Assembly (NCBI GenBank): GCA_944392815.1 | Contig: CALXXY010000013.1 | Span: forward strand, 1-16,015 | Source: an uncultured Alphaproteobacteria bacterium | Lineage (GTDB): Bacteria > Pseudomonadota > Alphaproteobacteria > Rs-D84 | Direction: 5' to 3' | Length of the DNA: 16,015 bases | Shown: positions 8,771-9,582 of the stretch, piece by piece | Position numbering within the stretch: the stretch's first letter is position 1 | Layout: each line of letters opens with the position of its first letter | Translations under genes and position numbers: made by a program | The notes under the pieces: model-generated | Told to the model about the DNA's origin: nothing | What the model saw: only the letters and a program-made list of their open reading frames with translations | The model's database searches: none

Positions 8771-8773
8771 TAA

Positions 8774-8807
8774 TAGAGTGTAGAGTGAAGAGTATAGAGT
8801 GTAGATG
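8774..8807. repeat. Short tandem heptamer repeat (TAGAGTG, about 4.5 units)
   Basis: TAGAGTG TAGAGTG AAGAGTA TAGAGTG TAGATGT directly after the rmuC stop. Confidence 0.85.
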
Positions 8808-8811
8808 TTGT

Positions 8812-8841
8812 CTGCGGGCGGTACGCCCGCAGTGCTTTTTT
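8812..8841 (+). terminator. Intrinsic terminator of rmuC
   Basis: Stem CTGCGGGCG-gta-CGCCCGCAG followed by TGC and T6. Confidence 0.7.
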
Positions 8842-8903
8842 ATTTACTGGATCGCCACGCTTTGCTCGCGATAACAATGGGGACTAAGTGCGTGTTCTTT
8901 AAA

Positions 8904-8958
8904 TCTCTGACCACCCTGCCCTAGCCACCCACGCGACACGTCGCGCGGGGCCCGGTGT
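8904..8958. repeat. 55-bp GC-rich direct repeat, copy 1, containing a hairpin element at 8925-8955
   Basis: 54/55 identical to 9218-9272; similarity extends about 19 bp upstream (14/19). Confidence 0.95.
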
Positions 8959-9003
8959 GGCGGTGGGCATTCTGCTTGGTTATTGTTCGGACATGCTCTC
9001 CCC

Positions 9004-9187
9004 TGTCATTCCCGCGCCCGGGGTCCCCGCAAACACGAATGTGTTTGTGGGGTGGACAAGGCGGGAATAGGGTCTATAAAATTCGTATCGCAGATTTCAT
9101 AATAATAAAAACGCGATACAGAATTATTCCCCCAATTAAATAACTAATAACAACCCAAGCCCTATTCCCGCCTGCGCGGGAATGACA
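9004..9187. repeat. Inverted pair of dRS3/RPE-like palindromes (GTCATTCCCGCGCAGGCGGGAAT) flanking an AT-rich spacer; left arm interrupted by a 41-bp insert
   Basis: 9004-9017 joined to 9059-9072 is the exact reverse complement of 9160-9187 (28/28). The core ATTCCC-N8-GGGAAT is the Neisseria dRS3 consensus. Confidence 0.9.
9018..9058. mobile_element. 41-bp miniature hairpin insertion element (putative, non-autonomous)
   Basis: Removing it restores the host palindrome. It has a 12-bp stem CCCCGCAAACAC-gaat-GTGTTTGTGGGG, and its ends match the hairpins at 8925-8955 and 9239-9269 in opposite orientation. Confidence 0.6.
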
Positions 9188-9217
9188 AGTTCAGAGAGTA
9201 AGTGTTTTTTCTTGAAT

Positions 9218-9296
9218 TCTCTGACCACCCCGCCCTAGCCACCCACGCGACACGTCGCGCGGGGCCCGGTGTTCGCCCACCCCTCCAATGGAGGGG
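9218..9296. repeat. 55-bp direct repeat copy 2 (9218-9272) followed by the hairpin CCCCTCC-aat-GGAGGGG (9280-9296)
   Basis: Direct comparison with 8904-8958; perfect 7-bp terminal stem. Confidence 0.92.
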
Positions 9297-9336
9297 AACT
9301 TTATTCCGCGACGGGACGATAACAAATAATACCGAA

Positions 9337-9582
9337 TTATGATTTTGATTTTTTCTGCAGGATTTTTTGCTGCAGTTCTAAAATTTTTGTCTCGCGATTT
9401 TTTATCGTTTCAATTAATCGATTGTTTTCCAGTCGTAATTTTTCTAAATCCTGGCGATTGACCAAAATTTCATTCGACAGACGGCGCGTTTTTTGGCGAT
9501 GAAACATTAACATTATCAACGCGCCAATTACTGCGCCCGCAACGCCGACTGTTAAATCATATAAAACGTCCGTTATAACCAT
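9337..9582 (-). CDS. Hypothetical single-pass membrane protein with C-terminal coiled coil (81 aa)
   Basis: TM segment LTVGVAGAVIGALIMLMF followed by basic residues and heptad Leu/Ile spacing (LEKLRLENNRLIETIKNRETKILELQQKIL). TATAAT lies 6 nt upstream of the ATG. Confidence 0.75.
   Translation of the reverse strand: MVITDVLYDLTVGVAGAVIGALIMLMFHRQKTRRLSNEILVNRQDLEKLRLENNRLIETIKNRETKILELQQKILQKKSKS

Follow-up and report, generated by a model that had tools for sequence, protein, structure and literature searches.

In Neisseria, the 94-aa single-domain GIY-YIG nuclease SsnA binds the NTS, a 28-nt subset of the dRS3 repeat, as a single-stranded hairpin and cuts one strand only, a few bases upstream of the NTS; neither duplex DNA nor RNA is cut, and cutting persists when the hairpin halves are placed on separate oligonucleotides (Chenal et al. 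2025, PMC11893778). According to the same report, NTS-like motifs flank ssn homologues across many phyla, the NTS-ssnA-NTS arrangement is likened to an insertion sequence, many nuclease-hairpin pairs are expected, and the published degenerate motif, SRM, allows loops of 0-5 nt only (PMC11893778). Here we describe a small hairpin, the module, that lies in the loops of NTS-like and other palindromic repeats in a 16,015-nt stretch of DNA (the window), which is contig 13 (CALXXY010000013.1) of the assembly GCA_944392815.1 from an uncultured alphaproteobacterium of the order Rs-D84 (18 contigs, 927 kb, completeness 96.8%). The module is previously undescribed, family-wide and of defined structure.

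Several other systems are built on short hairpins. REP sequences are defined by a conserved 5' tetranucleotide tag beside a hairpin, and RAYT genes are usually flanked by their own REPs. REP hairpins are in turn targeted, sometimes in their loops, by members of the IS3 and IS110 families, which are approximately 1 kb or more in length and have known transposases. The attC sites of integrons are structure-defined single-strand hairpins in which the base is conserved, some bases are unpaired and the tip varies; one strand is read.

The module occurs in the window in two types, A and B, each nested in host palindromes. In what follows G000 denotes the window's own genome, other G numbers denote species genomes, L numbers loci and C numbers contigs of G000. 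The relevant features of the window are as follows.

9018..9058, + strand: type-A module, 41 nt, reading CC / GGGGT bulge / CCCCGC / AAACAC-GAAT-GTGTTT / GTGGGG / T / GG / ACA
9004..9017, + strand: 5' half, TGTC ATTCCCGC GC, of the NTS-like host hairpin that the 41-mer interrupts (repeat search)
9059..9072, + strand: 3' half of the NTS-like host hairpin, AG GCGGGAAT AGGG (repeat search)
9160..9187, - strand: uninterrupted NTS-like partner hairpin whose loop is 4 nt, representing the 28-mer in its empty form (repeat search, folding)
9004..9187, no strand assigned: miniature hairpin-to-hairpin carrier unit, approximately 143 nt once the insert is discounted, AT-rich in its middle and present in about 13 genomic copies
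8922..8955, - strand: type-B module copy 1, tip GCGAC-GT-GTCGC (direct reading and pattern)
9236..9269, - strand: type-B module copy 2, core identical to copy 1 (repeat search and pattern)
8909..8972, - strand: H2 host palindrome (ATGCCCACCGCC .. GGCAGGGTGG) around type-B copy 1, listed among the module contexts
9223..9296, - strand: H3-type host palindrome (GGAGGGGTG .. GGGGTGGTCA) around type-B copy 2, plus the adjoining CCCCTCC-AAT-GGAGGGG hairpin

Direct reading and a repeat search showed that the 41-mer interrupts the perfect hairpin TGTC-ATTCCCGC-GCAG-GCGGGAAT-AGGG exactly between the loop GC and AG, with no duplicated bases. The arms at 9004-9017 and 9059-9072 are 100% complementary to 9174-9187 and 9160-9173, respectively; because these two targets abut, removal of 9018-9058 restores a 28/28 match, confirming the claim of the initial annotation that the 41-mer was a loop insertion with no clear target duplication. 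The annotation had called the host dRS3-like. The host does fit ATTCCC-N8-GGGAAT, and the description can be narrowed: compared by eye with the published NTS consensus, the 28-mer agreed at 25 of 28 positions, and as judged from its sequence it is very similar to the NTS hairpin of the neisserial Ssn system (PMC11893778). The intact hairpin at 9160-9187 folded with -9.1 kcal/mol (z = -4.8). For the composite at 9004-9072 the folding energies were -19.9 (top strand) and -17.5 kcal/mol (bottom strand), with the 41-mer forming a 12-bp inner hairpin within the split stem.

The two type-B 34-mers are held in a 77-nt direct repeat (8882-8958 and 9196-9272, 91% identity in the repeat search). Consistent with the original reading, the reverse complements of 8922-8955 and 9236-9269 have CCGGG..CCCCGC..GTGGG..TGG in common with the 41-mer, and their tip is different and fully paired. 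The pattern CCCCGC-N8-24-GTGGG occurred three times in the window compared with 0.15 expected, a number that was reached in one of 200 shuffles. Relative to empty paralogues, the boundary of the 34-mer insert is ambiguous by 4 nt, with GGGC on either side. In isolation the 34-mer folded no better than shuffles of its own GC-rich sequence (z = 0.01), so the reality of the module rests on copy number and covariation. Reads of other samples, which derive from all paralogues, frequently had C>T at 9034 paired with G>A at 9043, the same variant as is carried at C4:9534.

Covariation was analysed in an alignment of 47 of the 68 distinct element-plus-flank sequences, after removal of near-duplicate rows (G000, G043) and of two readings on the reverse strand (L089, L098). 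Since the filter demanded a tip helix and a CCC..GGG base, pairing in these parts is by construction; the three outer pairs were unfiltered. Those pairs were standard in 46/47, 41/47 and 34/47 sequences, with 3-17 double changes each (for example ACC/GGT, TTC/GAA, ATC/GAT, TACC/GGTA, AACC/GGTT, GTC/GAC and TAC/GTA), and a fourth outward pair failed (7/47). The covariation score was 0.43, compared with 0.16 for column shuffles, of which 0 of 500 reached the observed value, and with at most 0.14 when the partners were slid. RNAalifold returned the same fold, in which the first G of GGGC pairs with the lone T to leave a 3-nt 5' bulge.

Read 5' to 3', the module therefore comprises an outer helix of 3 covarying base pairs, a conserved bulge reading GGGC or, in type A, GGGGT, a conserved CCCGC/GTGGG helix and a paired tip of free sequence (5-8 bp, with a loop of 2-6 nt); a single T lies opposite the bulge. 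At approximately 35-48 nt, the unit is longer than first described because the outer helix and the bulge belong to it. The G-T mismatch, initially described as conserved, was present in all 25 paired-core copies of G000; across the family the G.T in the CCCGC/GTGGG helix is predominant but not invariant, being replaced by A-T in L089, L098 and nine G119 copies. Both G.T pairs read as A.C mismatches on the other strand. A variant form was observed at C1:138978-139015 (L131:529-572), where, in a type-B-like hairpin, the complement of the 3' arm stands in place of the GGGC bulge, giving a near-perfect 18-bp palindrome in which the G.T position is kept.

Pattern and covariance searches recovered dozens of further copies, genus and family wide. 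G000 (0.93 Mb) contained 25 paired-core copies, all with GC..GT at the mismatch position; 28 were found with a looser pattern and at least 28 with the covariance model, R1. Four main tips were present: A, AAACAC-GAAT-GTGTTT; B, GCGAC-GT-GTCGC; C, GCAAAC-ATA-GTTTGC; and D, GAAAAT-GCA-ATTTTC. In the genus Candidatus Enterousia, pattern matches occurred in 138 of 257 species genomes (724 in total, with a maximum of 62 per genome), and a reversed-pattern control gave 0-4 matches per genome. Pattern copies in sister species that share subtypes numbered 25 in G000, 48 in G215 and 62 in G230. The strict pattern under-counts the module: G119 had no pattern matches but nine model matches, with the G.T replaced by A-T. 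At the level of the order Rs-D84, R1 matched 78 of the 151 genomes sampled, namely 77 of 121 in family f1 plus the window's own genome, with five genera besides Enterousia represented; the module was not found in 29 genomes from five other Rs-D84 families (0/29).

The suggestion that the element might be undescribed was upheld. In Rfam, the only family matched by the window was tRNA, and the sole match to 8780-9340 was at chance level, below the gathering threshold (E = 0.42, 21.6 bits against a threshold of 66). No description of the module was found in the Enterousia literature consulted, where repeats are not mentioned; a literature search on nested REP insertion returned nothing, and the literature from 2025 on SRM, SsnA and NTS yielded no relevant study besides that of Chenal et al.; a word search did not find Enterousia or Rs-D84 named in 12 of the 14 supplement files of that report (PMC11893778). 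Viral contigs were considered as carriers and rejected, since only one of 56 pattern matches had a paired core and its contig was chromosomal-looking (UPF0102 gene).

For the analysis of nesting, each element was exchanged for a loop of 4 nt and folded together with 32 nt of flanking sequence per side, with controls displaced by 70 nt. At least eight flank pairs spanned the site in 59 of 85 copies (from 53 sources) compared with 48 of 168 displaced controls, and the median z against shuffled flanks was -2.1. The hosts in G000 were the NTS-like 28-mer, the H2 palindrome (ATGCCCACCGCC .. GGCGGGGGTG) and the H3 type. The same host repeats occurred with and without the module, both at the carrier ends and for H2, of which the scan pattern detected six empty and eight filled copies in G000 (the copy at 8909..8972, whose right arm reads GGCAGGG, falls outside that pattern). 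The L038 orthologue of the H3 stretch at 9223..9296 is without the small hairpin. Host stems in other species included ATTCCGGTG, ATTCCTGC, TCCCGTGG, TCCTGTGG, ATACCCGC and CCCCTCC/GGAGGGG, and nesting recurred in G043, G032, G046, G049, G054 and G266, each with differing host stems. When 98 distinct contexts were classified by crude rules, 30 were GTC-tagged hairpin hosts with the module in the same orientation, one scored as opposite and 67 were other or unclassified; the single opposite-scoring context was an H3-type host on reading. In GTC-tagged hosts, the better-paired strand of the module is the GTC-tagged strand of the hairpin.

A second class of hairpin with the ATTCCCGC stem was seen at 11 sites in G000 (e.g. 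C1:19133 and C1:43542), with the flanks TCTATT .. AATA, loops of 4-9 nt and no GTC tag. Separately, at C2:2944-3170 (L142) an open reading frame (ORF) with a signal-peptide-like start runs through a type-C hairpin and the palindromes that follow; here a repeat array has seemingly replaced the 3' part of a secreted-protein gene.

GIY-YIG matches in G000 numbered three. Two were 102-106-aa genes located in repeat arrays, with GIY-YIG as the sole Pfam domain and 48% identity to each other; they are predicted to encode Ssn-type nucleases. The third, in a 498-aa open frame, is taken to be UvrC. A search of NCBIfam with the Ssn-type protein of G000 gave only a weak, sub-threshold match to a group I intron endonuclease, and a search for relatives in the PDB found none. 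The Ssn-type gene on C8 lies 160 nt from a carrier unit. A hairpin-ssn-hairpin layout was found in L191 (G118) and L193; in L191 the protein is 76% identical to that of G000 and the outer and inner hairpin flanks are those of the carrier ends, and because of these shared ends the approximately 143-nt carrier looks like a gene-less miniature of a hairpin-ssn-hairpin unit. Among 23 ssn loci, 11 had perfect hairpins of the host type, and at several of these the hairpins stood on either side of the gene. As for the nuclease or transposase gene flanked by the element for which the initial annotation proposed a search, an Ssn-type GIY-YIG gene lies beside a host hairpin unit, but the R1 module was present at only 2 of 22 ssn loci.

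Around the second Ssn-type gene (C2:36990-37700, L167), three copies of a repeat of approximately 110 nt flank the gene. This repeat has NTS-like-looking ends (GTCATTGC .. GCAATCCAGG) and a long interior that forms its own hairpin, and so offers a further example of nesting within an NTS-like stem. No transposase domains were found in small ORFs located between paired hairpins; one of these ORFs had a DUF805 domain and one a GIY-YIG domain.

As in the published NTS/Ssn system, this organism has approximately 100-aa single-domain GIY-YIG genes flanked by hairpins, intergenic hairpin clusters and a competence gene (ComEC). In contrast, the module itself is not an NTS but sits within an NTS-like loop, and the main host hairpin fails the published motif at the base after the palindrome (PMC11893778). 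The neisserial intergenic mosaic elements (dRS3 plus RS) share the host stem ATTCCC-N8-GGGAAT and modular, reshuffled arrays; they differ in belonging to another bacterial class, and an insert in the N8 loop was not found described in the accounts consulted. REP/BIME and REPIN-RAYT systems also have many intergenic copies of short GC-rich imperfect palindromes, mostly at gene 3' ends and in mosaic clusters, with a conserved base, a compensated variable stem and strand asymmetry. Unlike them, G000 has no RAYT/Y1 gene, the module has no classical 5' tetranucleotide tag, its unpaired bases being a 5' GGGC and a 3' T, and it is nested inside other palindromes rather than placed side by side with them.

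The insertion sequences that target REPs also use hairpin repeats as sites, but the insert here is 34-41 nt and no such transposase was found. In architecture the module resembles attC, without cassettes or attC core sequences. Unlike IS200/IS605 carriers, G000 gave no matches to TnpA (Y1) or TnpB. As for the insertion mode of IS200/IS605, type A was inserted without duplication and the H2 insert has GGGC on both sides; as for their fixed 3' target, the left flanks of the module share only a pyrimidine-rich end. The link to HUH enzymes that had initially been drawn was not supported: Y1_Tnp (PF01797) had no matches at E<=1 in G000 and in the genus was confined to 4 of 257 genomes, where module copies numbered 0-2, and the flanks of three PF01797 genes contained no such hairpin. 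In two of the genomes with a Y1_Tnp ORF (G111 and G260), the ORF region (L032:1445-1877 and L033:1519-1878) was itself observed to be a long imperfect palindrome, with several 14-20-nt arm pairs of 100% complementarity nested around one centre.

The explanation towards which we lean, by a little more than even chances, is that the module is a loop cargo of Ssn-type and other palindromic repeats that has spread mainly with its hosts. It would have entered each kind of host loop only rarely, the apical loop being a permissive site, given that recognition by the published nuclease involves the stem and flanks and that a split hairpin is still cut (PMC11893778). Nearly all present copies would then have been produced by amplification or recombination of the host units, which may be miniature hairpin-hairpin derivatives of hairpin-ssn-hairpin units, and the small hairpin cores may double as points of breakage or exchange.

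This explanation draws on the distribution of filled and empty hosts. At the carrier end beside AGGGTCTA, the 41-mer was present in eight copies (six by the strict pattern and two variants) and absent from five, whereas the other end was filled in none and empty in 12, although both terminal hairpins are identical 28-mers (Fisher p = 0.005 on the six strict filled copies). One further filled carrier copy has a truncated flank. Subtypes were likewise tied to particular hosts: ten of 11 type-C copies lay in H2, both type-D copies in one context, and seven to eight copies of G043 in a single hairpin context. All six type-B copies share the start of the 3' flank, with two left-flank kinds and one right-flank kind. 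Because the subtypes are host-bound and the 41-mer occupies one carrier end, most copies appear to have arisen by co-amplification and recombination. The polarity is clear: loops are short in the hairpins that surround ssn genes and in the Neisseria NTS, which makes the filled state the derived one. Thus the proposal of a structure-defined unit that targets hairpin loops held as regards its conserved ends, covarying stem and nesting, but not as regards repeated independent targeting.

Additional 'half' junctions were found, in which the left arm of the host is followed by YGGGCCCCGC and 13-20 nt, ending exactly at the next complete host hairpin, at the following positions.

G000 C4:9362, C10:18793 and C14:772: 'half' junctions
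L001 (G032): 'half' junctions, four copies

Together with the type-B flanks and a copy in G043 whose left and right flanks come from different hosts, these junctions imply that module cores are also break or exchange points.

A number of results weigh against spread mainly with the hosts. Type-C cores are 100% identical while their H2 junctions differ in nearly every copy; empty H2 loops are equally varied, and the variation fits separate insertions and fast change in unpaired junctions alike. In G043, one identical core occurs in two unrelated hosts and, with the copy that has chimeric flanks, indicates that cores pass from host to host by movement or exchange. While host stems diverge, the base of the hairpin has been conserved in many species, which suggests that something reads the hairpin base directly, as would be needless for a pure passenger. 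Genomes with at least 13-15 model matches have only UvrC as a GIY-YIG match (G046, G192 and G203). The published SRM motif had 0 matches in G000 compared with 1-8 in ten shuffled genomes; it misses the host hairpin because the base after the palindrome is A, where the motif has a binding-crucial cytosine, and by sequence the host therefore counts as NTS-like, not as a formal SRM (PMC11893778). Module-bearing hairpins are in any case invisible to that motif because it allows loops of at most 5 nt.

Finally, no orthologous same-species empty site was demonstrated at rmuC loci, in reads or in metagenome contigs. The rmuC spacers of 80 species (L036-L115) range from approximately 30 to 570 nt even between close species and are unalignable, and four of the 80 hold the module; in that of G230 (L037), a small helix-turn-helix-like ORF was seen in place of the repeats. 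An exact 26-mer from the rmuC end had no matches in metagenome contigs. With Logan contigs breaking off inside the repeats and raw reads from every paralogue mapping there, no locus-specific empty site was readable. Read skips (e.g. from 9236 to 9275 with four other letters) were rejected as empty sites, as their sides are short and match other paralogues. A comparison of GC skew with orientation gave agreement for five of seven informative type-C copies, too few for use.

An actively mobile, non-autonomous single-strand DNA element, REP-like and moved in trans into exposed hairpin loops, was judged unlikely. Its mover would be an Ssn-type GIY-YIG nuclease or another enzyme, possibly one encoded outside the binned genome. 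The duplication-free, exact insert at the loop centre, the identical cores with variable junctions, the single core in two G043 host types, the fixed orientation relative to the tagged strand of the host and the strong differences between sister species sharing subtypes (25, 48 and 62 copies) all agree with such an element. We consider it doubtful that the bare 35-48-nt hairpin is itself mobile, being read as single-stranded DNA via its GGGC bulge and the G.T helix base, and we are equally hesitant about its one-orientation placement in Ssn-type apical loops by the Ssn nuclease plus host repair, or by an unrecognised enzyme. Under active mobility, the filling of only one of two identical carrier ends, the binding of each subtype to one host and the presence of the module at only 2 of 22 ssn loci are difficult to account for.

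Hairpin count rose with the number of GIY-YIG matches (Spearman rho 0.35, kinship uncorrected), in favour of mobility; at least two such matches were found in 65 of 77 genomes with three or more hairpins compared with 64 of 119 with none (kinship uncorrected), and in all 16 genomes with at least ten hairpins. On the other hand, some copy-rich genomes lack a small GIY-YIG gene, and G072 and G171 have 6-7 GIY-YIG matches but no module copies even by the model. Besides the absence of Y1 matches, G000 had none for IS110, TnpB, rve or DDE_Tnp_1; its four tyrosine recombinases were two Xer-sized proteins and two phage-type integrases. A Phage_CRI-like Rep was rejected as the mover, because it was found in 14 of 257 genomes, including the zero-hairpin G226, and was missing from most copy-rich genomes. 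In G000 this Rep belongs to an AT-rich island of at least 14.6 kb (approximately 33% GC) that adjoins tRNA-Met and extends from about position 1600 of L147 (C2:200000-216256) to the contig end, and that also encodes a tyrosine integrase and a 1229-aa ORF; recent transfer is suggested by the 99% identity of the Rep to its counterparts in two other species (G226 and G230).

It is rather improbable that the module is kept for a host function, as a protein-binding DNA site or a structured element within 3' untranslated RNA acting in stability or termination, with its spread a by-product of array shuffling. Such a role would be consistent with the conservation of the bulge and helix base across the whole family, with the compensatory changes in two helices, with the location of 18 of 28 copies between convergent crude ORFs, the usual REP-type place, and with the G.T, which would be G.U in RNA. 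However, orientation to the nearest upstream gene is mixed, and both orientations occur within one 350-nt array of the window. Furthermore, 73 of the 151 sampled order genomes are without the module, as are complete genus genomes such as G221 (100% completeness); copy number ranges from 0 to 62 and no Rfam family matches.

That the module serves a second, diverged Ssn-type nuclease as its recognition hairpin, and hence is a new class of Ssn-related motif, is highly unlikely: G000 does have two Ssn paralogues that are 48% identical, the module lies 90-250 nt from an ssn gene in G032, G070 and G119, and the published report expects many nuclease-hairpin pairs, but the module occurs at 2 of 22 ssn loci only, the copy-richest genomes (G215 and G230) have one small GIY-YIG gene each, beside an NTS-like carrier, and the module has no sequence likeness to the motif of that report (PMC11893778).

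With respect to its surroundings, the repeat array lies downstream of rmuC (by Pfam), with convergent genes on both sides. The window also contains the competence gene comEC (by Pfam), and the sequencing runs that contain this stretch are chicken-gut metagenomes. Two further features of the array were noted.

8812..8841, + strand: terminator-like GC hairpin and T-run 3' of rmuC, at the start of the array (by reading, not a terminator scan)
8846..8877, - strand: additional NTS-like hairpin (..ATCGCGAGC-AAA-GCGTGGCGAT-CCAG), which recurs in other arrays (by reading)

At 8773-8805 in the window, and at the edges of many G000 arrays, short direct repeats of ATAGAGTGTAGA-like units were observed.

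Genomes of approximately 0.9 Mb are expected to shed repeats, yet these keep dozens of stacked hairpins, and their relatives range from 0 to 62 copies. The mosaic repeat landscape is linked to the Ssn nuclease system described in 2025, and the conserved second hairpin in the loop adds a layer unseen by the published motif with its loops of at most 5 nt (PMC11893778). If loop cargo alters binding or cutting by the nuclease, the module would bear on the policing of incoming DNA. Were the bare module to move, it would be a new minimal mobile element, few structure-defined mobile DNAs being as small, and no earlier element would be known that parasitises Ssn hairpins. Bench tests with the 100-aa enzyme have a concrete substrate in the anatomy of the module and its covariance model.

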